Shown in pieces: positions 16,932 to 32,125 of a stretch of 64,000 nucleotides of DNA. The translations under genes and the position numbers were made by a program. This DNA comes from Alphaproteobacteria bacterium. Its GTDB lineage: Bacteria > Pseudomonadota > Alphaproteobacteria > CACIAM-22H2. The stretch is from positions 101,658 to 165,657 of the forward strand of contig WGNX01000009.1 in NCBI GenBank assembly GCA_016124335.1. Reading direction: 5' to 3'. Numbering within the stretch: the first letter of the stretch is position 1; every line of letters starts with the position of its first letter. The notes beneath the pieces were generated by a model. That model was not told the DNA's origin. It saw only the letters and a list, made by a program, of their open reading frames with translations, and did no database searches.

Positions 16932-18284
16932 ATGACCGAAGATACCCGTTGGGCCCGCCGCCCCTTGAGCGGCTACGACGTGCGGCTTCCCGTCGCCGAG
17001 GACGCCGAACTAACGCATGTCGATCCCGGCACGCCGGGAGGCGAATATCTGCGCCGCTTCTGGACGCCTGTCGCCATGACCACACAACTTGGCGCCCGCC
17101 CCGTGCCGATCCGGATCTTCGGGGAAGACCTCGTGATCTTCCGCGACGGCGCCGGCCGCATCGGTCTGCTGCATCGGCATTGCGCGCATCGCCGCGCGTC
17201 GCTGGAGTTCGGCCGTATCGAAGAACGCGGCATCCGCTGCTGCTATCACGGCTGGCACTTCGACGTGGACGGAACGATCCTTGAAACGCCCGGCGAACCG
17301 CCGACGAGCAAGATCTGCGGATCCATATGCCAGCCCGCCTACCCGGTTCGCGAATTGAAAGGTCTCGTCTTCGCGTACATGGGGCCGCCCGGCGAAATCC
17401 CGGCTTTTCCCTATCTCGACTCATTCGATCTGCCGGATCACGAACTGATCCCCTATTCCATCCATTCGCCCTGCAACTGGTTGCAGGAGACCGAAAACGC
17501 GATCGATCCCTTCCACTCCGTCTTCCTGCACGGGCGGGTGAACGGGCCGCAGTTTCCGGGCCTCGAGCATTTCGTTGAATTGCCGGTCGTCAATTATTCG
17601 CGGCGCGATGCCGGCATCGTCTACAGCCATGCGCGGCGCGTGGGCGATCTCGTGATGCTGCGTTTCCACGACTACCTGATGCCCAACCTCGCCCAGAACG
17701 GCGGCATGTTCCAGAAGCTGGAAAAGCCGAAATTCTTCGGCCGCACGAGCCTGACGAAGTGGGTCGTGCCGGTCGACAACACGAACAGCCGCAAGTTCGG
17801 CTGGCGGCATTTCAACGACAAGGACGAGGTGCTGCGGCAGGGCAAGCGCGACGAGGTCGGCTGGGAAACGGTCGATTTCTATGGCCAGACCGCGCACCGC
17901 TCCTACGAGGAAAGGCAGGGCAATCCCGGCGACTGGGACGTTTGGGTGAGCCAGGGACCCATCGCCGTCCATGGGCGCGAATATCTCGGCAAGACCGACG
18001 AGGGGATCGCGATGCTGCGCCGGAAGCTGCGCCGCGATATTCGCGCGGTCGCCGCGGGCGAGAAGATCGCGCAGGTCGGCGGTACGCCGGAGAATCCCTA
18101 TCCCACATATGGTGGAGATACGGTGCTACGGGTCGCCAAGTCGAACGACGACGAGGCACTGATGCGCGGGCTCCAGCAACAGGTGGCCGAAATCTATTTC
18201 GCCGCCGACGGCCTGAAGGGCGAAGAGCGGAGCGCGCGTATCAAGGCGGATCTCAAAGCGAAGTTCCCGGACTCCGCTGGTTAG
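16932..18284 (+). CDS. Rieske [2Fe-2S] non-heme iron oxygenase, alpha (catalytic) subunit
   Basis: Rieske CAHRRASLEFGRIEERGIRCCYHGWHF (CxH-x17-CxxH); 450 aa with a GAGGAA RBS. No beta or reductase partner adjacent. Confidence 0.85.
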   Translation: MTEDTRWARRPLSGYDVRLPVAEDAELTHVDPGTPGGEYLRRFWTPVAMTTQLGARPVPIRIFGEDLVIFRDGAGRIGLLHRHCAHRRASLEFGRIEERGIRCCYHGWHFDVDGTILETPGEPPTSKICGSICQPAYPVRELKGLVFAYMGPPGEIPAFPYLDSFDLPDHELIPYSIHSPCNWLQETENAIDPFHSVFLHGRVNGPQFPGLEHFVELPVVNYSRRDAGIVYSHARRVGDLVMLRFHDYLMPNLAQNGGMFQKLEKPKFFGRTSLTKWVVPVDNTNSRKFGWRHFNDKDEVLRQGKRDEVGWETVDFYGQTAHRSYEERQGNPGDWDVWVSQGPIAVHGREYLGKTDEGIAMLRRKLRRDIRAVAAGEKIAQVGGTPENPYPTYGGDTVLRVAKSNDDEALMRGLQQQVAEIYFAADGLKGEERSARIKADLKAKFPDSAG

Positions 18285-18325: not shown

Positions 18326-19072
18326 TCAGACGACGCTGCGCCTCGGCAACGGAATATGTTCGATGGGCGTATCGCCGAAACGTTCGTAACCTTCGGCGAG
18401 TGCAAGCTCCTTCGCCACGATCATGCCGTCGCCCTGGATGCCATGGGTCGGATCGAGCATTCGCCGCCCCTTCGTTCCGGGCGGATCGAACGTCCACTCC
18501 TGGAAACCGAGAATGTAGAAATTCAGCATCACCGCCGGCTTGCCGTCGGCGCAGAACCAGTGGGCATTCTTCGAAACCTCCGTCGTCTCGAACCTGTCGC
18601 CGATGCCAAACCACCTGTCGGTGCGCGTACGCAGCAGGATCGTGTCCGGCCCGAGCCGCGCCACGCGATCCCACTCGCGCGCATAGACCCGGCCGTGGAG
18701 AACGACCTGCGTGGAGATCAGGTTGTGATGGCAGTGCGGCGGATGGACTTCGTTCGGCTCGAGATAGAGAAGCTGCATGGTCCACGAGCGCTCGGGTGTG
18801 GTCTTCTGGTTGAGGATCTGATCCTTGCGTTCGGCGAGCGCGCGCTCGATCCACGGCCTGAGCTCGTCCGTCAGATCGAGCGAGTGATGCAGATCGCGGA
18901 TTCGGTCGATGTATTCATCCGGCGTGATCTCGTGCCTGGCGAGACGCTCGATCTGGGCCTGCGCATCCGCCCAAAGACGTTCATGATAGGAGTCGATATC
19001 GGGCAGGATGGCGCCAGCCCGGGTATTCATCTTTACGATCTTCCCCGAAGCGGTCTTGATCTCGCCGGCCAT
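18326..19072 (-). CDS. Hypothetical cupin-like protein, co-oriented immediately downstream of the Rieske oxygenase
   Basis: Histidine-rich cupin-like motif EVHPPHCHHNLISTQVVLHGRV. The start was chosen at MAGEIK to avoid a 32-nt overlap with the upstream gene. Confidence 0.5.
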   Translation of the reverse strand: MAGEIKTASGKIVKMNTRAGAILPDIDSYHERLWADAQAQIERLARHEITPDEYIDRIRDLHHSLDLTDELRPWIERALAERKDQILNQKTTPERSWTMQLLYLEPNEVHPPHCHHNLISTQVVLHGRVYAREWDRVARLGPDTILLRTRTDRWFGIGDRFETTEVSKNAHWFCADGKPAVMLNFYILGFQEWTFDPPGTKGRRMLDPTHGIQGDGMIVAKELALAEGYERFGDTPIEHIPLPRRSVV

Positions 19073-19085
19073 CTTCCGTCTCCTC

Positions 19086-20309
19086 TCAGCGCGCGCTGCC
19101 GCCGACCATCGTGTCAACGAGCATGTTCTGGAAGTGATGGACGTTCTTTTCCCAGACGGGGGAAAAGACGACCTTGTCGGCGACCGGTGACTGGCGCGCG
19201 ATCTGCTGCTGCTCCCAGATCTTCATGTCCTGGCTGCGGATGCCGCCATAGTCGCGAAGCTTGCCGGTCTCGCCGAGCCAGCGTGAGAGCGTGCGCTTGC
19301 GCTGGCTGGCGAACTCCGGCGCAGTCGCCGCTTCGCCGACGAAGAAGAAGCCCATTTTCGACACCGTCCTGTCGGCGGCCACGGGATCGGCGATCACGGA
19401 GGCGAGGTGATCGGATTGCAGCGTCAGCGTCATGTTCGGGAAGACCACGCTCGTGCAGCGGACGCGCTTCTTGCCTTCCGGGAACGGGATGGCCGGCAGA
19501 TCGCCCACGGCCGGATAGAAGTCCTGGTCGCCGCGCCGCTTGAGCGTCACGACGGTGCCAAGCGGGATCGGCTCGGCAACCGGCTGGCCGGTCTCCATGT
19601 CGAGATCGTCCGACATTTTCGTGAAGACGTTCTTGTGGACCCAGACGTGGTGATAGGTCTCCCAGTTGTCGTTCTGCATTTTCCAGTTTCCGCTCCACGC
19701 CCAATCCTCGCGGTGGGCGATGCGCGTGGCGCCGAGATCGGCGCCCTGGATGAGTTCCTCGAGCGGGCGCACATGCTCTTCGAAGGTCGGCGCGTTGCCA
19801 TCGATATTGATGAAGACCCAATGGTGCCAGACCGCCGTGCGCACGGGTACGAGCCCGAGTTCGCCCAGATCGAGATTCGTGCGCTCGTTACCGCCCTTCG
19901 TGCCGTCGAAATACGGCGTCGACTTGAGCCTGCCGTCGAGATCGTAGGCCCATGCATGATAAGGGCACGAGAACTGCTTCAGATTTGAGCAGGGTTCGGT
20001 CACCATCATGGCGGCACGATGCCGGCAGACATTGTGAAAGACGCGGATCGTTCCGGCCCGGTCGCGAACGAGGATGAGCGGCAATCCGGCGGCCATGAGC
20101 GGGATTGCATCACCGGGATTGGGCACGTCGCTCGCGAAAGCGAGGCACATCCACGTGCGCGCGAACAGTTTCTTCTGTTCGAGGCGGAAAAACGCGTCGC
20201 TGGTATAGGCAAGCGCCGGCAATCCGCAAGCTTCGCCAATCGGTTTGCGAAGTCTGTCGATCGCTTCGGCACCGAGAATTTCGGCTACCGTCGATTCCGC
20301 AAGCGCCAT
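19086..20309 (-). CDS. Rieske non-heme iron oxygenase alpha subunit, glycine-betaine-demethylase (GbcA)/carnitine-monooxygenase-like
   Basis: Rieske CRHRAAMMVTEPCSNLKQFSCPYHAW; mononuclear Fe site NDNWETYHHVWVH; 407 aa. Confidence 0.8.
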   Translation of the reverse strand: MALAESTVAEILGAEAIDRLRKPIGEACGLPALAYTSDAFFRLEQKKLFARTWMCLAFASDVPNPGDAIPLMAAGLPLILVRDRAGTIRVFHNVCRHRAAMMVTEPCSNLKQFSCPYHAWAYDLDGRLKSTPYFDGTKGGNERTNLDLGELGLVPVRTAVWHHWVFINIDGNAPTFEEHVRPLEELIQGADLGATRIAHREDWAWSGNWKMQNDNWETYHHVWVHKNVFTKMSDDLDMETGQPVAEPIPLGTVVTLKRRGDQDFYPAVGDLPAIPFPEGKKRVRCTSVVFPNMTLTLQSDHLASVIADPVAADRTVSKMGFFFVGEAATAPEFASQRKRTLSRWLGETGKLRDYGGIRSQDMKIWEQQQIARQSPVADKVVFSPVWEKNVHHFQNMLVDTMVGGSAR

Positions 20310-20515: not shown

Positions 20516-21370
20516 ATGAAGGCGCGGTGGCAACTCGTGCTGCTGCCCTCGCTGCTGCTCTCGATGCTGCTGCTCGCGGCATCGCAGTTCGCCTTTCTGC
20601 GTGGCAGCTTCTTCAAGGACCTCCGGCTCGGTCGGCTCGGCGCGGACCTGACGATCGAGAACTATGTCCGCTTCTTCACCGACAGCCTCTATCTCGACTC
20701 GCTGCTTCTGACGGTCCGGCTGTCCGCGACGGTGGCATTGCTCACGCTCGTCATCGGATATCCAGTCGCCTACATCCTGGCGCGCATGCGCTCGCGCTGG
20801 TCGCTCGTGCTGCTTGCCGCGATCATCGCGGCGTCGTTCATCACGATCGTGATCAAGGTCCTGGGACTAATCATCATCTTTTCGAGCGGCGGCACGCTGA
20901 ACCGGCTTCTTCTCGCATCGGGCCTGATTGCCAAGCCGCTCACGATCATGGGGCAGACATCGGGCGTCGTCGTCGGCCTCATGCACTTCACGATGGGATT
21001 CGCGGTCCTGCTCCTCTACGGGGTCGTGCGTACAATCCCCCGCTCGCTCGAAGAGGCGGCGGAAGTTCACGGCGCGCCGCGCTGGCGCGTCTTCCAGCGG
21101 ATCATCATCCCGCTGAGCCTGCCCGGGATCGCGGTCACGTTCCTCATCGTCTTCAACCTGTGCATGGGGGCTTTCACGTCGGCGGCGCTCATCGGCGGGG
21201 GCAAGGTGTTCACGCTTCCGGTCCTGATCCAGCAGACCGTGATCATGCAGACGCGCTATGCGATGGGTGCGACGATCTCGGTCGTCCTTATGGTCGTCAC
21301 GCTGCTCATCAACGCGCTGTCGGTCGTGCTGATGGCGCGCCTTGACCGGCGAAAGACGGCCGTCGCATGA
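20516..21370 (+). CDS. ABC transporter permease, PotB-like
   Basis: 6-TM permease with EAA-like motif RSLEEAAEVHGA. The track ORF 20105..21370 over-extends the 5' end. Confidence 0.85.
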   Translation: MKARWQLVLLPSLLLSMLLLAASQFAFLRGSFFKDLRLGRLGADLTIENYVRFFTDSLYLDSLLLTVRLSATVALLTLVIGYPVAYILARMRSRWSLVLLAAIIAASFITIVIKVLGLIIIFSSGGTLNRLLLASGLIAKPLTIMGQTSGVVVGLMHFTMGFAVLLLYGVVRTIPRSLEEAAEVHGAPRWRVFQRIIIPLSLPGIAVTFLIVFNLCMGAFTSAALIGGGKVFTLPVLIQQTVIMQTRYAMGATISVVLMVVTLLINALSVVLMARLDRRKTAVA

Positions 21371-22206
21371 GCGCGCGCTCCCCCGCCGTGCGGTTGCGCC
21401 GCGCTGCCGCGGCGACATGGGTCGGACTCGCCTTCGCGTTCCTTTTCGCGCCGCTGGTCGTCGTGATCGGCGCCTCGCTCGACGGCGGGGAGCGCACGTT
21501 CCTCAATTTCCCGCCGCAACACCCCTCCCTCCACTGGTACACGCGCATATCGCCGGACCTGTTCGAGGCGCTCGGCATCAGCATCGTGCTGGGACTGACA
21601 ACGGCGTTCATCGCGTGCCTTCTCGGCGTGCCGGCGGCGCTGGGGCTTGTCCGCGCGCAGTTCCGTGGCAAGGCGATCGTCGCCGCCCTCTTCCGTGCTC
21701 CGCTGCAGATCCCGGCTGTCGTCGTCGGCGTGTCGTTCCTGAAACTCTACTATTCGATCGGCGGCGCAACGGACACATACCTCGGCGGCACACTGGCTGG
21801 CCTCGTGATCGCGCACGTCTTCCTCGCCACACCTTATGTGATAGGAACGGTGTCGGCGGTCCTCCAGCGTTTCAATCTTCGCCTCGAGGAGGCCGCGCTG
21901 AGCCTGGGGGCAACGCGCTGGCGCACGTTCCGGCGCGTGACGCTGCCGGTGATCATGCCGGGCGTCTATGCGGGCGGGATGTACGCCTTTCTCATTTCCT
22001 TCGGCGACGTGCCGGTCTCGCTCTTCCTCGGGGCGGGCGACATGCAGCCCTTCGCGGCCAAGATATTCCATCTCATGGAGTTCGATTTCGACCCCACGCT
22101 GCTGGCGATCTCGACCCTCATCATCTTCGGGTCGCTCGGCGCGATCTATCTGCTGCAGCGCGCCGTCGGGCTCGAGACGCTCAGCCGTTCGGGCGGCGGA
22201 AACTGA
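21367..22206 (+). CDS. ABC transporter permease, PotC-like
   Basis: EAA motif LRLEEAALSLGATRW; start overlaps the potB-like stop (ATGA). Confidence 0.85.
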   Translation: MSARSPAVRLRRAAAATWVGLAFAFLFAPLVVVIGASLDGGERTFLNFPPQHPSLHWYTRISPDLFEALGISIVLGLTTAFIACLLGVPAALGLVRAQFRGKAIVAALFRAPLQIPAVVVGVSFLKLYYSIGGATDTYLGGTLAGLVIAHVFLATPYVIGTVSAVLQRFNLRLEEAALSLGATRWRTFRRVTLPVIMPGVYAGGMYAFLISFGDVPVSLFLGAGDMQPFAAKIFHLMEFDFDPTLLAISTLIIFGSLGAIYLLQRAVGLETLSRSGGGN

Positions 22207-22238
22207 CCGATCAATCACACGACAACAGGAGGCATGCG

Positions 22239-23321
22239 ATGCGCAACATCCGTAGACGGCAGCTACTCGGCGGCATCGCCGCGGTTTCGACGTTCGCGAT
22301 CATGCGGAGACCGGCAGACGCCCAGCAGGCACGGTTCGACGGCGTAACACTTCGCGTCGCGACGTTCGGTGGCGGCTGGGACAAGGCCGTCCACAAGTAT
22401 GCAGGCGTCAAGCTCGAGGAACTTGGCGCCAAGGTCGAATACGTGACCGCCCCGCCGCGCGACAACCTTGCCAAGCTGATCGCCGCGAAAGGCCGGCCCG
22501 CCCCCTTCGATGTGGTCGAGATGGGCGACCTCACCTGGGTCGACACCTACGAGGGCGGCTTCATCCAGAAGATCGACCTGTCGAACATCCCCAACCGCAA
22601 GGATCTTCTGCCCACGCAGTCGGACGACTGGAAGGTCGCAAGCTGGGTCACGCAGGAAGGCATCGTCTATAACGCCGAGAAATTCGCCGAAAACGGGATA
22701 CCGAAGCCGGAGCGCTACAGGGACCTGCTCCATCCGAAGCTTGCCGGAAAGCTCTGCCTCATCGATATCTCGCAGGCGGGTGCCTCGCAGCTTCTCGTCG
22801 GCGCGTCGCTCGACGACGGCGGAAGCATGACCAACATCGAACCGGCGTTGAAGTTCGTGAAGGAAGCGAACCCGCTCCAGTTCTGGAAGGTCGGCGCACA
22901 GGCCGTGACGCTGATGAAGTCGGGCGACATCTGGGCGTCGACCATGCATGCCGGGTTCGCCGTCCAGATGAAGAAGGCCGGCCTGCCGGTCGCGTTCTGC
23001 CATCCCAAGGTCGGCGCCACGAAGCGCGGGCTCCTGAAGGAAGGCTGGCTTGGCGTCGTCAAGGGAACGCCCGTGCCGCGCGCCGCTGAGTTCTTCATCA
23101 ATGAATATGTCTCGGCGTCAGCCCAGCTCGGGCTGGCGCGCGAACGCGGCATCGTGCCGGTCAACGGCAAGGCCCGCGTACCGCTCGGCGAGGACCCGAT
23201 CTTGAAGGAAATGTTCCTTCTGAGCGATGCGGATGTCGCAAACATGGTGTCCGTCGACTTCAATGTGTTTAATCTCGATGAAGCCACCCAGCGCTGGACC
23301 CGGACTGTCGGGGCCCGCTGA
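22239..23321 (+). CDS. ABC transporter substrate-binding protein, PotD/PotF (polyamine/opine/aminoethylphosphonate) family
   Basis: A twin-arginine-like leader MRNIRRRQLLGGIAAVSTFA with an AGGAGG RBS; 360 aa. The track ORF 21342..23321 is a frame fusion. Confidence 0.85.
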   Translation: MRNIRRRQLLGGIAAVSTFAIMRRPADAQQARFDGVTLRVATFGGGWDKAVHKYAGVKLEELGAKVEYVTAPPRDNLAKLIAAKGRPAPFDVVEMGDLTWVDTYEGGFIQKIDLSNIPNRKDLLPTQSDDWKVASWVTQEGIVYNAEKFAENGIPKPERYRDLLHPKLAGKLCLIDISQAGASQLLVGASLDDGGSMTNIEPALKFVKEANPLQFWKVGAQAVTLMKSGDIWASTMHAGFAVQMKKAGLPVAFCHPKVGATKRGLLKEGWLGVVKGTPVPRAAEFFINEYVSASAQLGLARERGIVPVNGKARVPLGEDPILKEMFLLSDADVANMVSVDFNVFNLDEATQRWTRTVGAR

Positions 23322-23335
23322 ACATCCGAGGTTGA

Positions 23336-24310
23336 ATGCGCATCGCCGTCGTCGGCGCCGGCGCGATCGGCGGAGCCATCGCGCATGCGCTCGCCGTCGC
23401 CGGCATGAACCCGCTCCTCGTCGCGCGCGGCGATACCGCCAAAGCCGTCGCGCGCGACGGGTTGCGGGTCGTGCGGGACGGCAAGACGGAACTGTCGCGA
23501 CCGGCGGTTCTCGAAACGACGCAGGGTGCCGCGCCCTGCGACGTGGTGATCGGTACCGCCAAGGCCCATGATTGGGCGGCAATGGCGGGGGCGATCCGGC
23601 CACTGGTGGGACCCCGGACAGCCGTGCTGCCCGCGATCAATGGCATTCCCTGGTGGTTTTTCCGCGGGATGGGCGGCGCGCATCGAGACACCCGGCTTGG
23701 GAGCCTTGATCCGTCCGGCGAACTTACGGCAACGTTTGCACCCGAAAATATCGTCGGCTGCGTCGTCTACATGGCGGCCTCGCGGCCAGCGCCCGGTGTC
23801 GTCGAATGGCCCACGGGCCGTCGGCTTGTCATCGGCGGCATTTCACCGGATTGCGTAGGCGATATAGCCGCGATCGCGCGGCTTTTGCGCTCGGCCGGCC
23901 TCGAGATCGACGAAGCGACAGACATCCGCCGCGAGGTATGGATGAAGCTGCTCGGCAATGCCGGCTTCAATTCCGTTTCCGCACTCACGCGCGCGACGGT
24001 TGTCGAAATTCTCGACGATCCGGATCTGCGTGCGATTTGCGCCGACACGATCCGCGAGTTGAAGGCGGTTGCGTCCGCCAGCGGCACCGATCTCGACATC
24101 AACGTCGAAGCGCGTCTCGAGGCTGCCCGGCGGCTCGGACATTTCAAGACATCGACGCTGCAGGATTTCGAGGCCGGGCGGCCGCTCGAGATCGCGGCCC
24201 TCCTCGACGCGCCGGCGGAAATCGGCGCGATGACCGGCGTGTCGACCCCGGTCCTCGCCACGCTGGCGCGGCTCCTTCGCCGCGCTGCGGCCAGCCGCAA
24301 AGGCGCATGA
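23336..24310 (+). CDS. 2-dehydropantoate 2-reductase (ApbA/PanE) family NADP oxidoreductase
   Basis: MRIAVVGAGAIGG Rossmann start plus the conserved KLLGNAGFNS...TSTLQD C-domain. Confidence 0.8.
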   Translation: MRIAVVGAGAIGGAIAHALAVAGMNPLLVARGDTAKAVARDGLRVVRDGKTELSRPAVLETTQGAAPCDVVIGTAKAHDWAAMAGAIRPLVGPRTAVLPAINGIPWWFFRGMGGAHRDTRLGSLDPSGELTATFAPENIVGCVVYMAASRPAPGVVEWPTGRRLVIGGISPDCVGDIAAIARLLRSAGLEIDEATDIRREVWMKLLGNAGFNSVSALTRATVVEILDDPDLRAICADTIRELKAVASASGTDLDINVEARLEAARRLGHFKTSTLQDFEAGRPLEIAALLDAPAEIGAMTGVSTPVLATLARLLRRAAASRKGA

Positions 24311-24401
24311 ACCGCGCCGTTCCAAGGCCCACTCAAACTCATTCGACAGTCGCAAAAGCTGCGCCTAACGTCGTCCTGAACCCGAAAGGGACGCAAGGCC
24401 C

Positions 24402-25538
24402 ATGACGAAAACCGCCCCGCCCCCCGGGTCCGCGATGTCGCTCGATTGGGCGGCTGCAAACATCCGCAGCCTGCCGCCGTACAAAGGGCCCGCCACGTTC
24501 GCGGATTTCCCGGATGCCGCATCGCGTCCGCGGCTCATCCACTTGAACGAGTCTCCCTATCCGCCCTCGCCGCGTGTCGGCGAAGCGATGTCGGCGGCCA
24601 TGCACGATCTCAATCGCTATCCCGACATCTTCGGTCGCGCGCTGGTTCGCCGGCTTTCCGCCGCAACTGGCACTGCCGAACAGCGCATCGTGCTTGGCTG
24701 CGGCAGCGACGAGCTGATCCATTTCGCGACGGTCGTTTCACTATCCCCGGGCGATGAGGCGGTCGTCCCCGCGCCGAGCTTTCCGCGCTACGCGCTATCC
24801 GCGCGTCTGGCAGGTGCCGCCGTGAAGCGCGTGAAACTCGACCCGGGCGGTGCCTGCGATCCGGACGGGCTGGTTGCGGCAATCGGGCCGCGCACGCGGC
24901 TCGTTGTCTGCTGCACGCCGAACCCGCCTTCCGGCGGCATGATGACGGCAGAGGCCATCGCGGCCGTCGCGAAAGGCGTACCCGATGACGTGCTCCTGCT
25001 CATGGACGAGGCCTATTGCGAATTCGGCCGCCATGCCGGCGGGCCGGACGTGCTTTCCGCCATGCGTCGGCGCAAGGGGCCGTGGCTTGTCACGCGCACC
25101 TTCTCCAAGGCGTATGCATGCGCCGCCCTCCGCGTCGGTTACGCGCTGTGCGGAGACGACAGCGTCGCCGAGGCCTTCCGCCGCGCGAAACTTCAATTCA
25201 ATGTTCCTACGCTGAGCCAAATCGGCGCACTGGCGGCCTACGAAGACGAAGCCTATCTCGCGCACATGCTCGACAGGATCGGCGCAGAACGGGACCGGCT
25301 CGCGAAGGGACTTGCGCAGCTCGGCCTGCGCGTGCTGCCGAGCGCGGCCAATTTCGTGTCCTGCATTCTCGACGGGCCGGCGGCGAAAGCGATGGCGGCT
25401 CTCGAAGTACGCGGCATCTTCGTTCGCGACTGGCGTGATCCCGACCACTTGAGCGAATTGCGCATCGGCATCGGCACGCCGGACGATACGGGCGCCACGC
25501 TTGAAGCGCTCGGAACTTATTTGCGAGGTGACGCGTGA
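24402..25538 (+). CDS. Class I/II PLP aminotransferase, histidinol-phosphate/aromatic aminotransferase (HisC)-like
   Basis: YP(D/S)....L, TFSKAYACAALRVGY (the PLP-lysine region), ...NVP..SQ. 378 aa. Confidence 0.8.
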   Translation: MTKTAPPPGSAMSLDWAAANIRSLPPYKGPATFADFPDAASRPRLIHLNESPYPPSPRVGEAMSAAMHDLNRYPDIFGRALVRRLSAATGTAEQRIVLGCGSDELIHFATVVSLSPGDEAVVPAPSFPRYALSARLAGAAVKRVKLDPGGACDPDGLVAAIGPRTRLVVCCTPNPPSGGMMTAEAIAAVAKGVPDDVLLLMDEAYCEFGRHAGGPDVLSAMRRRKGPWLVTRTFSKAYACAALRVGYALCGDDSVAEAFRRAKLQFNVPTLSQIGALAAYEDEAYLAHMLDRIGAERDRLAKGLAQLGLRVLPSAANFVSCILDGPAAKAMAALEVRGIFVRDWRDPDHLSELRIGIGTPDDTGATLEALGTYLRGDA

Positions 25539-26053
25539 CCGGCGTGCCGCCCAGCGGAGCGCGAATCATCGCGGCGCTCAAGTCCGCCGGCGTCGGCTTT
25601 GTCGTGGCCGTGCCCGACATCGTCACCAGCGACGGGCTGCTTTGGCCGATTTCGCGCGATCCCGATTTTCGCCTGGTACGGATGTGCAAGGAAGACGAAG
25701 GGGTCGCGATATGCACGGGCCTCGCTTTTTCGGGCCGGCGTTCGGTGATGCTGATCCAGCAGACTGGATTTCTCGATTCGATCAACGCGATCCGCGCCGT
25801 CGGGGTCGAATACGAGCAGCCCGTCGTGATGCTCGTCGGCCTGCAGGGCAAAGAACCCGGCGTGGCGCCGTCGAAGTCGAAGAAAGTCTCCGTCAACATC
25901 GTCGAGCCGATCCTCGACACGATGGGCATCGCACGCCATCTCGTCGAGACCGATGCCGACGTCGAAGCCGTGGCGCCGGCAATCGAGAATGCCTATGCGG
26001 CCTCGCGCCCCGTGTGCGTGCTGATCGGCCAGCCGCCGACGGCGGCGTCATGA
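25535..26053 (+). CDS. Thiamine-diphosphate enzyme alpha subunit (sulfopyruvate/phosphonopyruvate decarboxylase ComD/Ppd N-terminal type)
   Basis: 172-aa TPP N-terminal pyrimidine-binding domain (CKEDEGVAICTGLAFSG), overlapping the next gene by ATGA. Confidence 0.7.
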   Translation: MTGVPPSGARIIAALKSAGVGFVVAVPDIVTSDGLLWPISRDPDFRLVRMCKEDEGVAICTGLAFSGRRSVMLIQQTGFLDSINAIRAVGVEYEQPVVMLVGLQGKEPGVAPSKSKKVSVNIVEPILDTMGIARHLVETDADVEAVAPAIENAYAASRPVCVLIGQPPTAAS

Positions 26054-26613
26054 TGAAGCGCGATGAATGCCTGAAGGCGCTCGCCCGCCACGTGCGCGAG
26101 GAAGCAATCGTCGCGACCTATCAGGCGGCGTTCGACTGGATGCGGATCGCGCTACGCGACCTCAATTACCTTTCAATCGGCGCGATGGGTCTTGCGTCGT
26201 CGCACGGGCTGGGACTGGCGCTTGGCCGGCCGGACCGGCGCGTCATCGTCCTCGACGGGGACGGAAGCCTTCTCATGAATCTGGGCAGCCTCACGACAAT
26301 CGCGGCCAGTGCGCCTGCGAATTTCGTGCATCTGGTTTTCGTCAACGGGGTGTACGAAGCGAACGGGAGCCATCCGCTCCCCGGCCGCGATCGGCTCGAT
26401 TTCGCGACGGTCGCGCACGGTTCGGGCATTGCCGATACCGGGACCATCTCGACCCTCGAAGCATTCGAGGCGGAGATCCCGTGGCTCCTGACCGGGCCCG
26501 GCCCGATCTTTCGCGCGCTGAAGGTCGTTGCCGGCGAGCCGAGCCCGCAGGACTACGCATATATCCACGGTGCAGAGACCCGCGCGCGGTTCCGCGCCGC
26601 TTTCGCGCGCTAG
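26050..26613 (+). CDS. Thiamine-diphosphate enzyme beta subunit (ComE/Ppd C-terminal type)
   Basis: TPP-binding GDGS...N motif, VIVLDGDGSLLMNLGSL; 187 aa. Confidence 0.7.
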   Translation: MMKRDECLKALARHVREEAIVATYQAAFDWMRIALRDLNYLSIGAMGLASSHGLGLALGRPDRRVIVLDGDGSLLMNLGSLTTIAASAPANFVHLVFVNGVYEANGSHPLPGRDRLDFATVAHGSGIADTGTISTLEAFEAEIPWLLTGPGPIFRALKVVAGEPSPQDYAYIHGAETRARFRAAFAR

Positions 26614-27554
26614 GCGGCTGCCGGCGGCCGCAGCCGCGTCGATGCCTTCGCCTCGTCGACAACCCATTCTCGGAAAGCCGCGATTTTCGGCGTCGCCAGC
26701 GCGCGCGCCGGGCAGACGAAATAGTGCGCGTAGCCGCTGGGCACCGACAGGTCGAACGGGCGCACGAGGCGGCCCGCCGCCAGATCGTCGACGACCAGCG
26801 GAGATCGGCCGAGCGCAACGCCCAGCCCCTCGATCGCGGCCTGGATCGACATGTTCGACTGGCCGAACCGCCGGCCTTTCGAGATATCCACGCCGGAAAC
26901 CCCGGCCGCATCCAACCATGTCCGCCAACCGGGCGTACGGCCGTCAAGTTGCAGGATGTCGTCGTGCAGAAGCGGTGTCCGCGCAAGGTCGCCCGGCGCG
27001 CGGAGCGCCTTCGCGCCCTTCAGCAGTCGCGGCGAGCAGACCGGGAACATGTCCTCATCGAGGATTTTCTCGACATGCAGGCCCGGATATCGGCCGGTGC
27101 CGTAGCGGATTGCCACATCCACTTCGCCGGCCGAGAAATCGGCAAGCTGGCCGGTCGTGGCGATCGCGAGCTCGATTTCCGGGTAGCGTTCGTCGAAACG
27201 GATCAGGCGCGGAAACAGCCATTTGACGGCAAAACCCGGCAGCGTCGAAACCGTCAATCGCGGGCCGCTATCCATGCGGGTCAGTTCGCGCAGCGCCTGT
27301 GCCACGACGCCAAGCCCCTCGCGTACGGACGTCGCGAGCTTCTCGCCCTTGACCGTCAGGACGATCCGGCGCGGTTCGCGATGGAACAGCTCGAATCCGA
27401 GTTGATCCTCAAGGCTGTGGATCTGGTGGCTGATGGCGCTCTGGGTCAGCCCCAGTTCGTCGGCCGCCATCGTGAAGCTCTTGAGACGCGCGGCGGCCTC
27501 GAAGGCGCGCAGCGCCGAAATCGGGGGCAAATTACGCAGGGGCGAAGCTGCCAT
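26610..27554 (-). CDS. LysR-family transcriptional regulator (GcvA-like)
   Basis: HTH ISALRAFEAAARLKSFTMAADELGLTQSAISHQI; divergent from the 2OG oxygenase at 27631. Confidence 0.9.
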   Translation of the reverse strand: MAASPLRNLPPISALRAFEAAARLKSFTMAADELGLTQSAISHQIHSLEDQLGFELFHREPRRIVLTVKGEKLATSVREGLGVVAQALRELTRMDSGPRLTVSTLPGFAVKWLFPRLIRFDERYPEIELAIATTGQLADFSAGEVDVAIRYGTGRYPGLHVEKILDEDMFPVCSPRLLKGAKALRAPGDLARTPLLHDDILQLDGRTPGWRTWLDAAGVSGVDISKGRRFGQSNMSIQAAIEGLGVALGRSPLVVDDLAAGRLVRPFDLSVPSGYAHYFVCPARALATPKIAAFREWVVDEAKASTRLRPPAAA

Positions 27555-27630: not shown

Positions 27631-28629
27631 ATGGAAGAGCCTGTCATGGCCTATGCGACCGCGGCCCATATCGACGCAGACGAGATTCCCGTCATCGATG
27701 TTGCCGGACTTGCCACGGAAGACCCCGCCGCGATCGCCGAAGCCGGCCGACGGATGCGCGAAGCGGCCGAGCAGATCGGCTTCTTCTACGTGCGAAACCA
27801 TGGGATTGCGCGCGAAACGGTCGATCGCGCATTTGAAGCAAGCGGCCGGTTTTTCCGCTCGCCCGAGGAACTCAAGCGCACGGCAACGATCAATGAACGT
27901 CACCGCGGCTTCCTGGCGGTGGGCCAATCGAAAATGTACACGGGCGCCCGCGTCGACCTCAAAGAAAGCTTCCTTTGGGGGCTCGAACTCGGCACTGACG
28001 ATCCGGACGTCGCGGCGGGAAAACCGCTGATGGGGCCGAACAATTGGCCGGCCGCACTGCCGGAAACGCGTGCGGCGTTCTACGCCTACTATCTCGCAGT
28101 GTGCGAATGCGGCCAGCGTCTTCTCAAGGGGCTTGCGGCAAGCCTCGGCCGGGACCCCACGTTTTTCGCCAAGTCGTTTGCAAAGCCGCTCGCCCGCGGA
28201 TCGGCGATCTACTATCCGCCGCAGCCGCCCGACATGGGCGAAACACAGTTCGGCGTGGCACCGCATACCGACTACGGCGGCCTGACGCTGCTGGCGCAGG
28301 ACGATGTGGGCGGGCTCCAGGTTCTTGCGAAAAGCGGGAAATGGGTGACCGCACATCCCATTCCCGACACGCTCGTGGTGAATATCGGCGACCTCATGCA
28401 CCGCTGGACGAACACGCGGTTCAGTTCCAATCCGCACCGCGTCGTCAATGCCTCAGGCCGCGAACGGTTTTCGATCGCCGTATTCTACGACCCGCATCCC
28501 GACACGCTCGTCGATCCGCGCGACCTGCTCGATGATCCGGCTGAGGCGAAATATCCGCCGATCACCTGCGGGGAATATATCGTCGGCCGGTTCGACAAGG
28601 CGTTCAAGTACCGCCAGTCGAAAGCCTGA
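27631..28629 (+). CDS. 2OG/Fe(II) oxygenase, IPNS-like; paralog of the CDS at 13166..14149
   Basis: HTDYGGLTLL, NIGDLMHRWTNTRFSSNPHRV, IPVIDVAGL...FFYVRNHGI; the motifs mirror those of the first copy. Confidence 0.85.
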   Translation: MEEPVMAYATAAHIDADEIPVIDVAGLATEDPAAIAEAGRRMREAAEQIGFFYVRNHGIARETVDRAFEASGRFFRSPEELKRTATINERHRGFLAVGQSKMYTGARVDLKESFLWGLELGTDDPDVAAGKPLMGPNNWPAALPETRAAFYAYYLAVCECGQRLLKGLAASLGRDPTFFAKSFAKPLARGSAIYYPPQPPDMGETQFGVAPHTDYGGLTLLAQDDVGGLQVLAKSGKWVTAHPIPDTLVVNIGDLMHRWTNTRFSSNPHRVVNASGRERFSIAVFYDPHPDTLVDPRDLLDDPAEAKYPPITCGEYIVGRFDKAFKYRQSKA

Positions 28630-29077
28630 CCGCCCGCGCAAGCCAGCCCTCGAGCCATTCGGCGTAGGAGCGCTCGCACCGCAATACGAAACCACCGTCG
28701 GTGCGCCACAGCAACACGCCGATATCGCCAAGACGCGCGCGGCCGATAAAGCCTGCCGGTGCACGCTCAAGATCGAGCGCGATACCTTGCATCAGAACGT
28801 CGAGCGCGCCTGCACCGGTCACGATGAAACCACCATATGCGTCCGACAGGTCGATAGCGCCCGGACCCGGAACTCCGTCGCCGAAAGCAAGCCACGTACC
28901 CGGTGCGATCGAAACCGCTTCGTCAGTCGGTCGGTCAGCGCATAGCCATGCGGAAACCTGCTCGCGCCCGATCGGCTGGATTGACGCAATCGAACTAGCC
29001 ACGCTGCCGCTCTCCCTTCGGATCGTAGAACGAAGGCGGCACGACTTGCGCGCCGGCCGTTCCGTCGGCGAGAGCAA
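28604..29077 (-). CDS. soxG: Sarcosine oxidase gamma subunit
   Basis: The last gene of the sox operon, with SoxG-like size and position. Its first ATG overlaps soxA by about 80 nt, so the true start is uncertain. Confidence 0.6.
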   Translation of the reverse strand: MLSPTERPARKSCRLRSTIRRESGSVASSIASIQPIGREQVSAWLCADRPTDEAVSIAPGTWLAFGDGVPGPGAIDLSDAYGGFIVTGAGALDVLMQGIALDLERAPAGFIGRARLGDIGVLLWRTDGGFVLRCERSYAEWLEGWLARAVRLSTGGT

Positions 29078-31895
29078 GCGTCACGTCGCTCCCCGTCAGC
29101 GACCGGCCATCCTCGATCAGGGCCATCGCCAGCGACCGGCCGAGCGCATCGCTCCAGCAGCTTGCCGTGACAAAGCCGCGCGTCCGGTCGCCTTGTGCAC
29201 GCAACACGGCGGAACCTTCGGGAAGGACAAATTGCGGGTCGCGCGCCATGAGACCGACGAGTTGGGGCCGGCCACTGGGCGATGCCCGGTCGCGCAGCAG
29301 CGCCTGGCGGCCGACGAAATCCGGTTTGTCGGCATGGACGGCAAAGGAAAGGCCCAGATCGTCCGGCCCGCAAATGCCGTCTGCCTCGTGACCGACGGAA
29401 ATAAAGCCCTTCTCGATCCGCAGCACGTGGTTTGCCTCCGACCCGACGGGTGCGATCGCGTGTCGACGGCCGGCCTCCAGCAAATCGCGCCATGCCTGTG
29501 GCGCTGCCGATGCAGGCAGGAAAATCTCGAACGAAAGCTCGCCCGTGAAGCCCGCGCGTGCCACTTGCACCGGCAGGCCCGCAAAACTGCACGCGGCAAG
29601 GCCGAGGAACGGGAAGCGTTCGGGAAGCGAAAGACCGGTGTCCGCAAGCACGGCACGCGCACGCGGCCCGCAGACCACGATATCGGCCCATTGTTCCGTC
29701 ACGTTCAGAACGCCGACGCGCAATTCGGGGCGCAGGATCTGTCGGCAATATTCGAAGCGCTGGTGGCAGGCATCCGCATTGCCGGTCGTCGTCGTCACGA
29801 AATAGCGATCCATCGCCGTCCGGAAAACGATGCCGTCGTCGAAGAGCCGCCCATCCTCGTGCAGTTGCAGTGCATATCGCCCACGACCGGGCGCAAGATC
29901 GGACAGGCGCGTCGCATAGACGAAATCGAGAAACGTTGCCGCATCCGGCCCGACGACCTCGAACTTGCCCAGCGGCGAAGAGTCGTACATGCCGGCCATC
30001 TGTCGCACCGCACGGCATTCGCGCCGCACGGCGGCTTCCATCGTGTCGCCGGCCTGCGGGTAGTAACCGGGCCGACGCCAATGTGCTCCTGCCTCGTACA
30101 TCACCGCGCCGGCCGCTTCATGCCAGGCTGTCAATGTCGTGGCGCGTGACGGTCGCAGCAGCGTACCGTTTGTGTCGGCAATCGTTGAAAACGGCACAGG
30201 CACGAAAGGCGGGCGATAGGTTGTCGTCCCGACCAGCCCCGGCGCAACCCGTTTTGCCTGCGCCAGCGCTTCTATAGCAGCAAGGTTGCCCATGCGCCCC
30301 TGATCGATCGCCATCCCGGTCGTCGTATAGCGCTTCAGCAGTTCGACCGATTCGTATCCTTCGCGTGCCGCCAATCGCAGGTCGTCAATCGTCACGTCGG
30401 CGGCAAAATCGACGAACGCCTTGCGATGCGCGACGTCGGCTGCCAGCGGTTCGCTGCCTGGCTCCGCGCGGGCATCGCCGCCCTCGGCGCGCGGCGGCGC
30501 CGTCGAGTCCACGCGGCACCCCGCTGCGCGGGCCGCTTCCCGCCCGGCCGCACTCCCGTCGCGAAGCACCTCGTCAAGCGAGGCGGCTCCGTTGCATGCG
30601 CCGGCACTCCACGCGCCGTCGTGCGGCCCGTCCGGAACGAACGCCCTCAGTTTTCCGACATGCCGTAGCCGGCCGCCTGAATGCGAGTGCAGATGGACAA
30701 GCGGCGTCGTCCCGCCCGACATCGCAACCACATCGCAGTCGAGCGTTCGGGATCGGCTATCGCCGCCAACGAGACGCACGCCGCGCACCGGCGATCCCAC
30801 GATCCCGGTTGGCGTGAACTCCGCATGGCATTCGATGCCGGCCGCACGCGCTTTGGCGACAAGTTCCGGGTCCGGCACCACACGCGGATCGACGATGTGG
30901 CGAACGGCGACGCCTGCCATCGCAAGAGCAACCGCATCGTCATAGGCGGCATCGTTGTCGGCGACAGCCACGACTTCCCGCCCGACCGCCACGCCGTGGC
31001 GCACGGCGAATGCCAGCGCGGCCGTCAGCAGCATCGCGCCCGGCCGATCATTGTCGGGAAAGACCAACGGGCGCTCGATGGCGCCTGTCGCCAGCACGAT
31101 GGACTTTGCGCGGATCTTCCACAGGCGTGCCGGTCGCCCCTCCGGTGAACGTTCGAGCGCGACGACAAGGCCACCGTCATATCGGCCTATCGCGGTCGTC
31201 CGGGCAAGGACCCGCACGCCGTTCGCAGCCAACGATTTTGCGCATAGCCGCGCCCATTCCCGCCCATCGACCCCATCGATGCGCAGGTCCGGCCGGTCGA
31301 GCAGCCGGCCGCCCGGCGCCTCGCCTTCGTCGAGCAGGATTATCCGCGACGCGTTCGATGCCACAGCGCGCGCCGCTGCAAGCCCGGCCGCGCCCGCACC
31401 GATGACCAGCACATCGCAATGCGCATTGCGCTTGGGCGTTTCGGCGGCCGGTCGGTCGGGCAATCGGCCGATGCCCGCCGCCTTGCGGATCATCGGCTCG
31501 AACAGCGGCCACAGCCGCCCGCCCGGGCCACGAAATGTCTTGTAGTAGAAACCGGCCGGCATCAGCGCGGAGAAAGTGCCCAGAAACGATTTCGCGTCGA
31601 ACCGGGCCGACGGCCAGCAGTTGGCGGCCCGCGCATTGAGCCCGTCGAAAGCTCGAACATTCGTTGCCAGTTCAATCCCGTCGGGCGTTTCGACAACAGC
31701 GTTTGGCTCCCACGATCCGAACCCGACGATTCCACGTGGACGGTGATATTTGAAACTTCGCGCCACCGTCGAAAGGCCGTTTGCGATGAGCGAAGCCGCG
31801 AGAGGCTCGCCGCGTCGCGCCGACAGGCGCATGCCGTCGAAATCGATCTCGACCGTGTCGTCGGGCACGAGCGGCAGGAGCCTGTAGCCGCTCAT
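28995..31895 (-). CDS. soxA: Sarcosine oxidase alpha subunit (heterotetrameric form; C-terminal GcvT-like domain)
   Basis: MSGYRLLPLVPDDTVEIDFDGMRLSARRGEPLAASLIANGL... , 966 aa. The track ORF extends 108 codons upstream of the real start. Confidence 0.9.
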   Translation of the reverse strand: MSGYRLLPLVPDDTVEIDFDGMRLSARRGEPLAASLIANGLSTVARSFKYHRPRGIVGFGSWEPNAVVETPDGIELATNVRAFDGLNARAANCWPSARFDAKSFLGTFSALMPAGFYYKTFRGPGGRLWPLFEPMIRKAAGIGRLPDRPAAETPKRNAHCDVLVIGAGAAGLAAARAVASNASRIILLDEGEAPGGRLLDRPDLRIDGVDGREWARLCAKSLAANGVRVLARTTAIGRYDGGLVVALERSPEGRPARLWKIRAKSIVLATGAIERPLVFPDNDRPGAMLLTAALAFAVRHGVAVGREVVAVADNDAAYDDAVALAMAGVAVRHIVDPRVVPDPELVAKARAAGIECHAEFTPTGIVGSPVRGVRLVGGDSRSRTLDCDVVAMSGGTTPLVHLHSHSGGRLRHVGKLRAFVPDGPHDGAWSAGACNGAASLDEVLRDGSAAGREAARAAGCRVDSTAPPRAEGGDARAEPGSEPLAADVAHRKAFVDFAADVTIDDLRLAAREGYESVELLKRYTTTGMAIDQGRMGNLAAIEALAQAKRVAPGLVGTTTYRPPFVPVPFSTIADTNGTLLRPSRATTLTAWHEAAGAVMYEAGAHWRRPGYYPQAGDTMEAAVRRECRAVRQMAGMYDSSPLGKFEVVGPDAATFLDFVYATRLSDLAPGRGRYALQLHEDGRLFDDGIVFRTAMDRYFVTTTTGNADACHQRFEYCRQILRPELRVGVLNVTEQWADIVVCGPRARAVLADTGLSLPERFPFLGLAACSFAGLPVQVARAGFTGELSFEIFLPASAAPQAWRDLLEAGRRHAIAPVGSEANHVLRIEKGFISVGHEADGICGPDDLGLSFAVHADKPDFVGRQALLRDRASPSGRPQLVGLMARDPQFVLPEGSAVLRAQGDRTRGFVTASCWSDALGRSLAMALIEDGRSLTGSDVTLALADGTAGAQVVPPSFYDPKGERQRG

Positions 31896-32125
31896 GGCAC
31901 GAACTCGTTCGTCGCACTGTTGCGGCGCAGTTTCAGCCAGCGACGGCAGCCGAATTTGTGCCACCAGAGTTCCTCGACCGGGCCTTTGGCATTCGCACGG
32001 CCATAGAGCGCTTCGGCGAGACCGTCCTCGCCAACCGGATGGCCGCCACTGTCGCCGAGGCAGACGAACTCGCCAGGTTCGCGCGGGCCACAGTCGGGGC
32101 AAGGGACAAGACGCATGCGCTTCAA
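31892..32125 (-). CDS. soxD: Sarcosine oxidase delta subunit
   Basis: 77 aa with the CPDCG...WWHKFGCRRW zinc-ribbon-like motif typical of SoxD; 4-nt overlaps on both sides. Confidence 0.85.
   Translation of the reverse strand: MKRMRLVPCPDCGPREPGEFVCLGDSGGHPVGEDGLAEALYGRANAKGPVEELWWHKFGCRRWLKLRRNSATNEFVP

Follow-up and report, generated by a model that had tools for sequence, protein, structure and literature searches.

Two-subunit thiamine pyrophosphate (TPP) decarboxylases of the ComDE type are given only two functions in the reviews of 2024-2025, the decarboxylation of sulfopyruvate and that of phosphonopyruvate, and this includes the split enzyme RhiEF. Here, we analyze a gene pair of this kind, termed alpha and beta, that is located in a 64-kb stretch of contig WGNX01000009.1 from an Alphaproteobacteria bacterium; the whole 64,000 nucleotides are referred to as the window. 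The deduced subunits of 172 and 187 amino acids (aa) have much in common with ComDE (EC 4.1.1.79): two small PYR and PP subunits of similar sizes, adjacent and overlapping genes, the GDG...N motif, the catalytic glutamate and, presumably, the non-oxidative decarboxylation of a 2-oxo acid. The phosphonopyruvate decarboxylases Ppd (AepY/Fom2 and the split RhiEF, PDB 9IZ3/9IZ4) belong to the same superfamily branch, and RhiEF is heteromeric as well. Sequence comparison places the pair in a large uncharacterised clade of the ComDE/Ppd superfamily, in a gene context that differs from those of the known members. The best explanation overall, to which we would give an even chance, is that the pair acts as the decarboxylase hub of a catabolic route for an unusual amino acid that is probably basic, bearing an imidazole or guanidino group, and N-modified.

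Functional parallels exist outside this superfamily branch. AruH-AruI-KauB constitute the arginine transaminase pathway of Pseudomonas aeruginosa. In this pathway, as in Ehrlich-type routes, an aminotransferase is followed by a TPP-dependent 2-oxo acid decarboxylase and then by an amino-aldehyde dehydrogenase, and in the arginine pathway a D-amino acid dehydrogenase (DauA-like) can feed the same 2-oxo acid. However, the AruI and Ehrlich decarboxylases are single-chain proteins of roughly 550 aa of the acetolactate synthase (ALS)/pyruvate decarboxylase type, unlike the split pair described here, and the likeness would be one of function only, not of family membership. Routes of the mandelate and imidazolyl-lactate type, in which a 2-hydroxy acid dehydrogenase and an aminotransferase are grouped around one 2-oxo acid, are another parallel: in the window, the gene of an enzyme of the ketopantoate reductase (KPR) family, similar to D-mandelate dehydrogenase, adjoins that of an aminotransferase upstream of the TPP decarboxylase. 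In this case, too, there are differences: sequence-level orthology is lacking, and the KPR gene is found only in close relatives of the window.

Alpha and beta together make up a TPP enzyme of two subunits with intact cofactor motifs. The PYR domain of alpha is recognized by TPP_enzyme_N (32.7 bits, cut-off 26.8), and the catalytic, cofactor-activating glutamate lies in the motif CKEDEG, which is at least 95% conserved over 83 family members. The PP domain of beta is recognized by TPP_enzyme_C (51.8 bits, cut-off 21.9), and its diphosphate/Mg motif GDGSLLMNLG...N is invariant in 18 of 18 aligned homologues. The alignment further reveals that a family-specific loop in beta, YEANGSHP, replaces the Y-x-STG-(D/G)-Q loop that is common to ComDE and Ppd, and that the family carries an extra conserved histidine in GAMG-ASSH. 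We scored both subunits against NCBIfam equivalog models with curated cut-offs, and all scores remained below them: alpha reaches 88.5 bits with the ComD model TIGR03845 (cut-off 147.95) and beta 101.2 bits with the ComE model TIGR03846 (cut-off 221.5), roughly half of what is required; the Ppd model TIGR03297 (cut-off 312.5) gives 113.1 bits for beta and 47.2 bits for alpha, and the uncharacterised model PRK06163 gives 113.5 bits for beta (cut-off 240). Among solved structures, the split Ppd RhiEF comes nearest (beta against RhiF, 9iz3_B, E = 2.7e-17; alpha against RhiE, 9iz3_A, E = 4.5e-5). Benzoylformate decarboxylase is the next-best PDB match of beta, and a third split TPP structure is available as PDB 9U8Q.

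Identities to the reference enzymes are low, with 30.5% to ComDE, 27.8% to AepY and 24.9% to a RhiEF-like pair. In a distance-based, neighbour-joining tree of concatenated alpha and beta (89 taxa, 347 columns, 100 bootstraps), the 83 family members stand apart from all references in 91% of the bootstraps, and the group of ComDE, AepY, RhiEF-like and P. yeei sequences is kept together in 95%. The references are few and plasmid-borne, with PGAP annotation: a Leisingera ComDE located in a 2,3-dihydroxypropane-1-sulfonate (DHPS) cluster, an Azospirillum AepY, the RhiEF-like pair of Bacillus cereus and three uncharacterised split pairs. Since the tree sets the family apart from these references, the pair does not appear to be nested in ComDE or Ppd. 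The sequence-only reading had suggested a role for the pair other than those of ComDE and Ppd, with a phylogeny as the check, and by both the scores and the tree the pair is not a recognisable ComDE or Ppd. In a library clustered at 50% identity, 4232 clusters are related to beta at E<=1e-3 and 60 at E<=1e-30. With so many related clusters, split TPP pairs appear far more diverse than their two known functions. Other uncharacterised split pairs were also seen in different contexts (L088, L090 and L091 among the loci of the L036-L091 type; L numbers denote individual loci), where the neighbours are either TRAP transporters together with GMC/choline-dehydrogenase-like oxidoreductases or an aldehyde dehydrogenase together with an NAD(P)-binding protein; these contexts suggest several further unknown functions within the split-TPP superfamily.

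The gene context of the pair is not that of ComDE or Ppd. Pfam and NCBIfam searches, which covered practically every credible gene of the window, detected no phosphoenolpyruvate (PEP) mutase, Xsc/Pta, CuyA/SuyAB, sulfonate transporter or sulfite exporter. Also missing from the window are an ALS-like single-chain TPP enzyme, genes for PhnX, PhnA or PalA, and the comABC, slcD, hpsNOP, xsc, pta and tauE genes that form the surroundings of ComDE. The genes xsc, pta, cuyA, suyAB and tauE are likewise absent from every annotated flank of the related loci. When alpha and beta served as tblastn queries, no further TPP enzyme came up in the window, and an Xsc-like one was found neither there nor in the flanks of clades A to C described below. 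Thus, the absence of PEP mutase, sulfonate transporter and Xsc that had been noted from the letters alone was borne out in the full 64 kb. Unlike ComDE, the pair has no coenzyme M, DHPS, sulfolactate or Xsc context and is accompanied by an aminotransferase, a deacylase and oxygenases; unlike Ppd and RhiEF, it has no phosphonate genes around it, and its surroundings are catabolic, not biosynthetic.

Comparison with other genomes shows which partners are kept. A scan of one genome per species recovered relatives in at least 598 species-representative genomes, of which the best 80 loci were analyzed with 10-kb flanks; extra loci came from exact-protein look-ups and a plasmid collection. Alpha adjoins beta in 84 of 84 loci. 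Three clades, A, B and C, are each supported by 99-100% of the bootstraps, and a HisC-like aminotransferase is adjacent in 19 of their 20 loci versus 3 of the 65 remaining family loci. Clade A consists of the window and its closest relatives, Tagaea-like metagenome-assembled genomes (MAGs) of Rhodospirillales, with beta at least 74% identical; it carries the aminotransferase, a 2-oxoglutarate (2OG) oxygenase and a LysR regulator, and its closest members only also have potBCD, the KPR gene, a GbcA-like Rieske oxygenase and a 248-aa protein. The cluster of clade B, where beta is 64-67% identical, is very compact and conserved. In it, the string Rieske-aminotransferase-AstE-permease-SBP_bac_3-permease is divergent from alpha-beta; downstream of the pair follow convergent genes for an Amidohydro_2 protein and a 2OG oxygenase, and next come the genes for an NMT1-type binding protein, a second 2OG oxygenase and a GntR regulator. 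For the pairing of 2OG oxygenase and Amidohydro_2, a likeness to thymine-7-hydroxylase and isoorotate decarboxylase was considered as a possibility. Clade C is marine and includes SAR116, Paracoccaceae, Arenicellales and the cultured Ruegeria conchae M340 (plasmid NZ_CP081104). Its gene order is amidase, AllG-like protein, two 210-aa proteins without Pfam match, Rieske oxygenase, a betaine aldehyde dehydrogenase (BADH)-like aldehyde dehydrogenase and (AstE), divergent from aminotransferase-alpha-beta, then LysR. The BADH-like enzyme adjoins in five of the six marine loci, Ruegeria conchae included, and is closest to betaine- and aminobutyraldehyde dehydrogenases. The marine string of amidase, AllG-like protein, the pair of about 210 aa and a LigXa-type Rieske oxygenase (L054 1833-4353, L085 5679-8127, also L058, L062, L075 and L073) looks like an uncharacterised multi-subunit system in its own right; the AllG-like protein belongs to the DUF1116 oxamate-carbamoyltransferase subunit family.

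The recurring partners, namely a DoeB-like deacylase, a LigXa-like Rieske oxygenase, two 2OG oxygenases and an SBP_bac_3 transporter, are all present in the window, where they are scattered over 8-38 kb. Their identities to clade B are 55% for the Rieske oxygenase, 51% for AstE, 54% for the SBP_bac_3 protein and 35% for the aminotransferase; among the 2OG oxygenases, copy b is 45% identical to the clade B copy beside Amidohydro_2 and copy a is 51% identical to the second one. In contrast, the KPR gene is confined to the window and its close relatives (L007/L008, L095). A potBCD-like transporter occurs in the close relatives and in two clade B loci, L092 and L094, the latter with a potD of about 40% identity; all other clade B loci lack it, as do clade C and the remaining family. 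These distributions indicate that the four-gene block beside potBCD is lineage-specific, and that the aminotransferase-alpha-beta core together with the wider partner set is conserved. The recurrence of the block next to potBCD, which the sequence-only reading had proposed to look for, therefore holds for the Tagaea-like MAGs but not for most loci, where KPR and potBCD are missing. In the remaining family, Bug/TctC binding proteins adjoin the pair in 10 loci, a D-2-hydroxyacid dehydrogenase together with a GbcA-like Rieske oxygenase, a PuuE-like and an Amidohydro_2 protein is found in 5, and most of the others have no informative neighbour. The parAB/gidAB/ispG neighbours in Xanthobacteraceae were discarded, as they reflect synteny near the origin, a phylogenetic and not a functional linkage.

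Across lineages the pair is accompanied by enzymes that make 2-oxo acids, that is the aminotransferase, the KPR-family dehydrogenase, the D-2-hydroxyacid dehydrogenase and a DAO-family oxidase. An aminotransferase and an aldehyde dehydrogenase beside the pair support the conversion of an amino acid via its 2-oxo acid to an aldehyde, and the simplest reading is that a 2-oxo acid decarboxylase forms the node of a catabolic route of the transaminase type. In the pathway that we propose, an unusual amino acid would be imported via the SBP_bac_3 transporter, the PotBCD-like transporter, or both, and where it arrives N-acylated the DoeB-like deacylase would free it. The aminotransferase would turn it into the 2-oxo acid, for which there might be two other sources, a 2-hydroxy acid oxidised by the KPR-family dehydrogenase and a D- or N-alkyl form of the amino acid acted on by the DAO enzyme. 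Alpha/beta would then decarboxylate the 2-oxo acid non-oxidatively to an aldehyde that is one carbon shorter, which in other lineages a betaine-aldehyde-type dehydrogenase would oxidise, and Rieske oxygenases, 2OG oxygenases and ureide-type hydrolases would break down the side chain. That the amino acid can arrive N-acylated is implied by L003, in which a natural fusion of an AstE/AspA deacylase and a HisC-like aminotransferase (3359-5068, 569 aa) supports consecutive action of the two enzymes.

Several observations favour a basic or N-heterocyclic substrate. The SBP_bac_3 protein of the window, which is 54-58% identical to those adjoining alpha/beta in L092 and L020, resembles arginine and lysine binders (AncCDT-1, arginine-binding, E = 5e-57; Ws0279, 3k4u, lysine-binding, E = 5e-49), the aldehyde dehydrogenase is nearest to the betaine and aminobutyraldehyde types, and the aminotransferases narrowly miss the hisC cut-off in every clade. 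Furthermore, genuine hutI-hutU genes are found in the window and hutU, hutH and hutI flank the SAR116 locus L020, and enzymes that open or split N-C-N units recur in the islands (PuuE-like, ureidoglycolate-lyase-like, AllG-like, amidase and creatininase-family proteins). The SBP_bac_5 protein and AstE, too, are common to the SAR116 locus and the window. A coherent scheme could lead from a histidine derivative via imidazolepyruvate and imidazoleacetaldehyde to imidazoleacetate, the ring of which would be oxidised and then opened. A 2-ketoarginine-like or a quaternary-ammonium (trimethyllysine-type) substrate fits nearly as well. As to the substrate itself, an imidazolepyruvate-like acid is a tentative proposal that falls well short of being probable, and the same holds for the substrate being something else altogether; a 2-ketoarginine-like or another cationic 2-oxo acid we consider rather unlikely when taken alone, and sulfopyruvate improbable. 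Between the two, we favour a basic derivative resembling histidine or arginine over sulfopyruvate. Joined into one statement, with somewhat less than an even chance, the pair would decarboxylate a cationic or heteroaryl 2-oxo acid, be it imidazolepyruvate, 2-ketoarginine or one derived from a basic amino acid that is N-methylated or N-acylated. It would be the first TPP decarboxylase of the ComDE type with such a substrate, and the hub of an undescribed, widespread pathway with up to four oxygenases, two Rieske and two 2OG enzymes in clades A and B; the carriers would be Alphaproteobacteria of soil, freshwater and the sea, among them SAR116 and roseobacters.

A number of points weigh against a catabolic route for a basic amino acid. 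The sole characterised relatives of the pair act on 3-sulfopyruvate and 3-phosphonopyruvate, which are small anionic substrates. The monophyly of A, B and C taken together is without support (19% bootstrap). The window aminotransferase is only 26-35% identical to those of clades B and C and may have been recruited independently. As many as 65 of the 85 family loci are counted as lacking the partners (the aminotransferase is adjacent in 3 of these 65), so that the substrate may be a common metabolite, or there may be several substrates. Genes of the hut type are found beside the pair in two lineages only, and in clade B no aldehyde dehydrogenase or reductase was seen nearby. Operons of P. aeruginosa that combine a PaIPNS-type oxygenase with an SBP_bac_3 transporter are co-regulated with sulfur-scavenging genes, and clade B carries a TauA/SsuA-like (NMT1) binding protein; these two facts keep an organosulfur substrate alive. 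A literature search for a characterised member of the clade or for the gene combination found no paper.

Among the alternatives, a divergent sulfopyruvate decarboxylase survives best, although we regard it as improbable. Here, cysteate (by the aminotransferase) and sulfolactate (by the KPR-like enzyme) would be converted to sulfopyruvate and this to sulfoacetaldehyde, and desulfonation would be oxygenolytic instead of Xsc-dependent, for example in sulfur scavenging. The named models with the highest scores include ComD and ComE, next to Ppd and PRK06163, but the scores lie far under the ComDE cut-offs, the pair shares only about 30% identity with a bacterial ComDE that is annotated as such by PGAP and lies in a DHPS cluster, and the bootstraps of 91-95% place the pair outside the ComDE/Ppd group. 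A dehydrogenase, an aminotransferase and a decarboxylase around one 2-oxo acid mirror the bifurcated sulfolactate pathway of Roseovarius; however, xsc, pta, cuyA, suyAB and tauE are missing, as described above. Similarly, the top NCBIfam match of the SBP_bac_3 protein is a cystine binder (124 bits), yet in the PDB this protein is much nearer to cationic amino acid binders. The link of the PaIPNS/ABC operon PA4191-95 to sulfur-metabolism genes and, in clade B, the NMT1/TauA-like binding protein beside a 2OG oxygenase would suit a sulfonate, as would a TauD gene nearby in L093, whereas the aldehyde dehydrogenase is of the betaine/amino-aldehyde type.

The sequence-only reading had understood the gene order as an Ehrlich-type route for the imported substrate or a fragment of it, from an amine or amino acid to an alcohol or hydroxy acid. 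In a specific version of this, the four genes would be a strict module tied to potBCD: PotBCD would take up an amine or polyamine, which is then transaminated and decarboxylated, and KPR would reduce the aldehyde to an alcohol. The gene order and the close packing of the window genes between potB and beta fit this, as do the same block in Tagaea-like MAGs and the PotD-like transporter near the cluster in L092 and L094. The KPR gene, however, is limited to one shallow lineage and most loci have no potBCD. HisC-like enzymes are alpha-aminotransferases that act on amino acids, and polyamine aminotransferases belong to class III. The best NCBIfam models of the window aminotransferase are indeed HisC types, all below cut-off (TIGR01141, 248 against 276.55 bits; NF003496, 256.7 against 540 bits), which is also true for the enzymes of clades B and C with TIGR01141 (227-241 bits); by these curated cut-offs it is not a housekeeping HisC. 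Its best PDB match is 4r2n, a putative phenylalanine aminotransferase. Characterised members of the KPR family, of the ketopantoate reductase and D-mandelate dehydrogenase type, reduce 2-oxo acids and not aldehydes, and we know of no KPR-family aldehyde reductase. For this reason, the KPR enzyme more likely interconverts a 2-hydroxy acid and the 2-oxo acid, and would feed the decarboxylase instead of reducing its aldehyde product. It matches ApbA (84 bits), ApbA_C (96 bits) and the subfamily models NF005089, a 2-dehydropantoate 2-reductase subfamily (314.7 against 223 bits), and TIGR00745 (167.8 against 141.35 bits), and PDB 3ghy with E = 4e-62, but stays below the cut-off of every equivalog model, and family membership does not establish ketopantoate as its substrate. 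The PotD-like protein is only marginally similar to binders of polyamines, gamma-aminobutyrate or pyridoxal phosphate in the PDB (E about 1e-6). A polyamine substrate is unlikely. Among the PDB matches of the binding proteins, the closest solved one is 9E2B (E = 1.5e-91). Of the original proposal the sequence from amino acid via 2-oxo acid to aldehyde is supported, on account of the aminotransferase in 19 of the 20 clade A to C loci and of the marine aldehyde dehydrogenase, while a polyamine as the imported substrate and a role of KPR as aldehyde reducer are less likely, and the strict module seems quite improbable to us.

We are equally sceptical about a TPP-dependent carboligase or lyase that forms or cleaves an acyloin, or couples a decarboxylation to another step, and that works with Amidohydro_2 or the oxygenases on a heterocyclic intermediate. 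The active-site loop unlike that of ComDE and Ppd and the two family-specific histidines in ASSH and NGSH might point to a different reaction, and so might the Amidohydro_2 gene immediately 3' of beta in clade B and in the 2-hydroxyacid dehydrogenase sublineage, as well as the missing aldehyde-processing enzyme of clade B. However, all characterised members of this superfamily branch are decarboxylases, and both the adjacency of the aminotransferase and the marine aldehyde dehydrogenase fit plain decarboxylation. A phosphonopyruvate decarboxylase in phosphonoalanine catabolism or phosphonate biosynthesis is hardly credible: the 113 bits of beta with the Ppd model, the best PDB match to the split RhiEF and a PotA-like ATPase that scores best with PhnT2 speak for it, against which stand the Ppd cut-off of 312.5, the lack of PEP mutase, PhnX, PhnA and PalA genes in the window, only 28% identity to AepY with a position outside the reference clade, and a negligible PhnS2 match of the PotD-like binding protein (33 bits, cut-off 392).

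The arrangement of the genes is given in Table 1. The block at 23336-26613 is made up as the sequence-only reading had described it, with open reading frames and Pfam domains for all four genes, and it directly follows potBCD (20516-23321) in the same orientation, 14 nt separating potD from the KPR gene, to give an apparent operon of 20516-26613. The aminotransferase and alpha genes overlap by 4 nt (GTGA), as do alpha and beta (ATGA), and these overlaps show that alpha and beta are co-transcribed and translationally coupled with the HisC-like aminotransferase; potB and potC overlap by 4 nt as well. The G+C content of the window is 65%. A promoter and terminator scan of 19.8-28.8 kb was uninformative, as the number of promoters was 0 and shuffled sequence gave more terminators. 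The potB gene is 85% identical to that of a Tagaea MAG. The PotA-like ATPase, encoded in a separate operon, probably serves potBCD; it reaches 382 bits with PhnT2 and 353 bits with PotA, both below cut-off. The 3' end of beta runs 4 nt into the convergent LysR gene, which scores 361.7 bits with NF008352 (cut-off 288), has counterparts at the equivalent position in clades A and C, and is likely the regulator of the island.

Table 1. Genes of the window around the alpha/beta pair (positions in the 64-kb stretch).
Feature	Position	Strand	Remarks
hutI	3993-5213	+	TIGR01224 471.5 bits, cut-off 298
hutU	5210-6874	+	TIGR01228 975 bits, cut-off 375
NikA/Opp-like SBP_bac_5 binding protein	6963-8504	+	
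AstE/AspA-family (DoeB-like) N-acyl-amino-acid deacylase	8506-9570	-	AstE_AspA_cat
Xanthine dehydrogenase (XDH)-type molybdenum cofactor (Moco) subunit	9755-12109	+	
PotA/PhnT-like ABC ATPase	12102-13154	+	ABC_tran + TOBE_2; separate operon
EFE/PaIPNS-like 2OG-Fe(II) oxygenase, copy a	13118-14149	+	Pfam
PrpD/MmgE-like	14146-15528	+	
Ureidoglycolate-lyase-like	15525-16010	+	
PuuE-like (allantoinase-type) ring amidohydrolase	16007-16918	+	TIGR03212 418.9 bits, cut-off 424.6
LigXa/phthalate-type Rieske oxygenase	16932-18284	+	Rieske + LigXa_C
248-aa protein	18326-19072	-	no Pfam or NCBIfam match
GbcA-like Rieske oxygenase	19086-20309	-	
potB-like ABC permease, at the start of the apparent operon	20516-21370	+	BPD_transp_1 in the L002 and L095 orthologues
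potC-like ABC permease	21367-22206	+	open reading frame; BPD_transp_1 in orthologues
PotD-family periplasmic binding protein	22239-23321	+	SBP_bac_8 and SBP_bac_6
KPR/ApbA-family reductase	23336-24310	+	324 aa; ApbA + ApbA_C
HisC-like class I/II aminotransferase	24402-25538	+	378 aa; Aminotran_1_2
TPP decarboxylase alpha subunit (putative), PYR domain	25535-26053	+	172 aa; TPP_enzyme_N
TPP decarboxylase beta subunit (putative), PP domain	26050-26613	+	187 aa; TPP_enzyme_C, GDGS-X26-N
GcvA-type LysR regulator	26610-27554	-	HTH_1 + LysR_substrate
EFE/PaIPNS-like 2OG-Fe(II) oxygenase, copy b	27631-28629	+	DIOX_N + 2OG-FeII_Oxy
soxA, soxD, soxB	28995-33369	-	
CMD-family (CMD/AhpD-like) protein	33377-34072	-	
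DAO-family FAD amino-acid dehydrogenase/oxidase	34014-35345	-	DAO
SBP_bac_3 amino-acid ABC transporter	35252-37841	-	two permeases, binding protein 36160-36993 between

Beyond the operon, the region of 4-38 kb reads as one large catabolic island. It begins with hutI-hutU, followed by the SBP_bac_5 gene and the divergent AstE gene, and SBP_bac_5, AstE and hutU/H/I also surround aminotransferase-alpha-beta in the SAR116 locus L020. A hutH gene was searched for in the 64 kb and is absent, and a FGase-family gene (54065-54958), considered as hutG, was dropped with 113 bits against a cut-off of 278. The AstE/AspA-family deacylase scores 248 bits with the DoeB model (cut-off 402.7) and is 38-51% identical to the AstE genes that adjoin the aminotransferase in clades B and C. 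Ectoine degradation, which a DoeB-like deacylase might bring to mind, was rejected: no DoeA/EutD hydrolase is found among the scanned window genes, and that pathway has no TPP step. A long run of genes on the plus strand (9755-18284) has a flavour of purine and ureide catabolism, with no small or FAD subunits of XDH seen along with its Moco subunit; a second XDH-type Moco subunit lies at 49899-52052 (minus strand). Homologues of the PuuE-like gene occur in L013, L015 and L092. The LigXa-type Rieske oxygenase is 54-55% identical to Rieske genes in operons with the aminotransferase of clades B and C and matches PDB 7fjl with E = 1e-48. The 248-aa protein is always paired with the GbcA-like Rieske oxygenase (86-88% identity in Tagaea-like MAGs, 42% in L094) and may be an unrecognised partner subunit of it.

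On the other side of the operon, copy b of the 2OG oxygenases matches PDB 9ovh (E = 2e-62) and 6jyv (PaIPNS, E = 2e-53). The solved EFE/PaIPNS member 6JYV is PA4191, which is without known function; the P. aeruginosa operon PA4191-95 joins the PaIPNS-type oxygenase to an ABC transporter of the SBP_bac_3 type and responds along with sulfur-metabolism genes and to glyoxal. The soxB-soxD-soxA genes form an operon of the heterotetrameric sarcosine oxidase type (soxB 550.7 bits, subfamily cut-off 529), and in the relatives L095 and L096 a creatininase-family gene is close by. The DAO enzyme, with 178 bits against the D-amino-acid dehydrogenase model (cut-off 383) and a counterpart at the equivalent position in L003, is a possible alternative source of the 2-oxo acid.

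What is described here is not a new mechanism but a widespread, mis-annotated family. The fold is known and the type of reaction is probably known; the clade and its partners are new, and so probably is the substrate. Source annotations (JGI names) label members of the clade as sulfopyruvate or phosphonopyruvate decarboxylase, apparently by default, and because only these two functions are on record automatic annotation assigns the clade to one or the other. If the substrate is a basic or heterocyclic 2-oxo acid, sulfonate and phosphonate cycling would be over-predicted in metagenomes. The locus would then represent a new catabolic route that involves uncharacterised families such as the PaIPNS-like oxygenases, the AllG-like protein and the 210- and 248-aa proteins without Pfam match, and it would widen the substrate range of the compact two-subunit TPP scaffold, which may be of interest for biocatalysis. 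With Ruegeria conchae M340 a cultured carrier is at hand, and this makes the question experimentally tractable.

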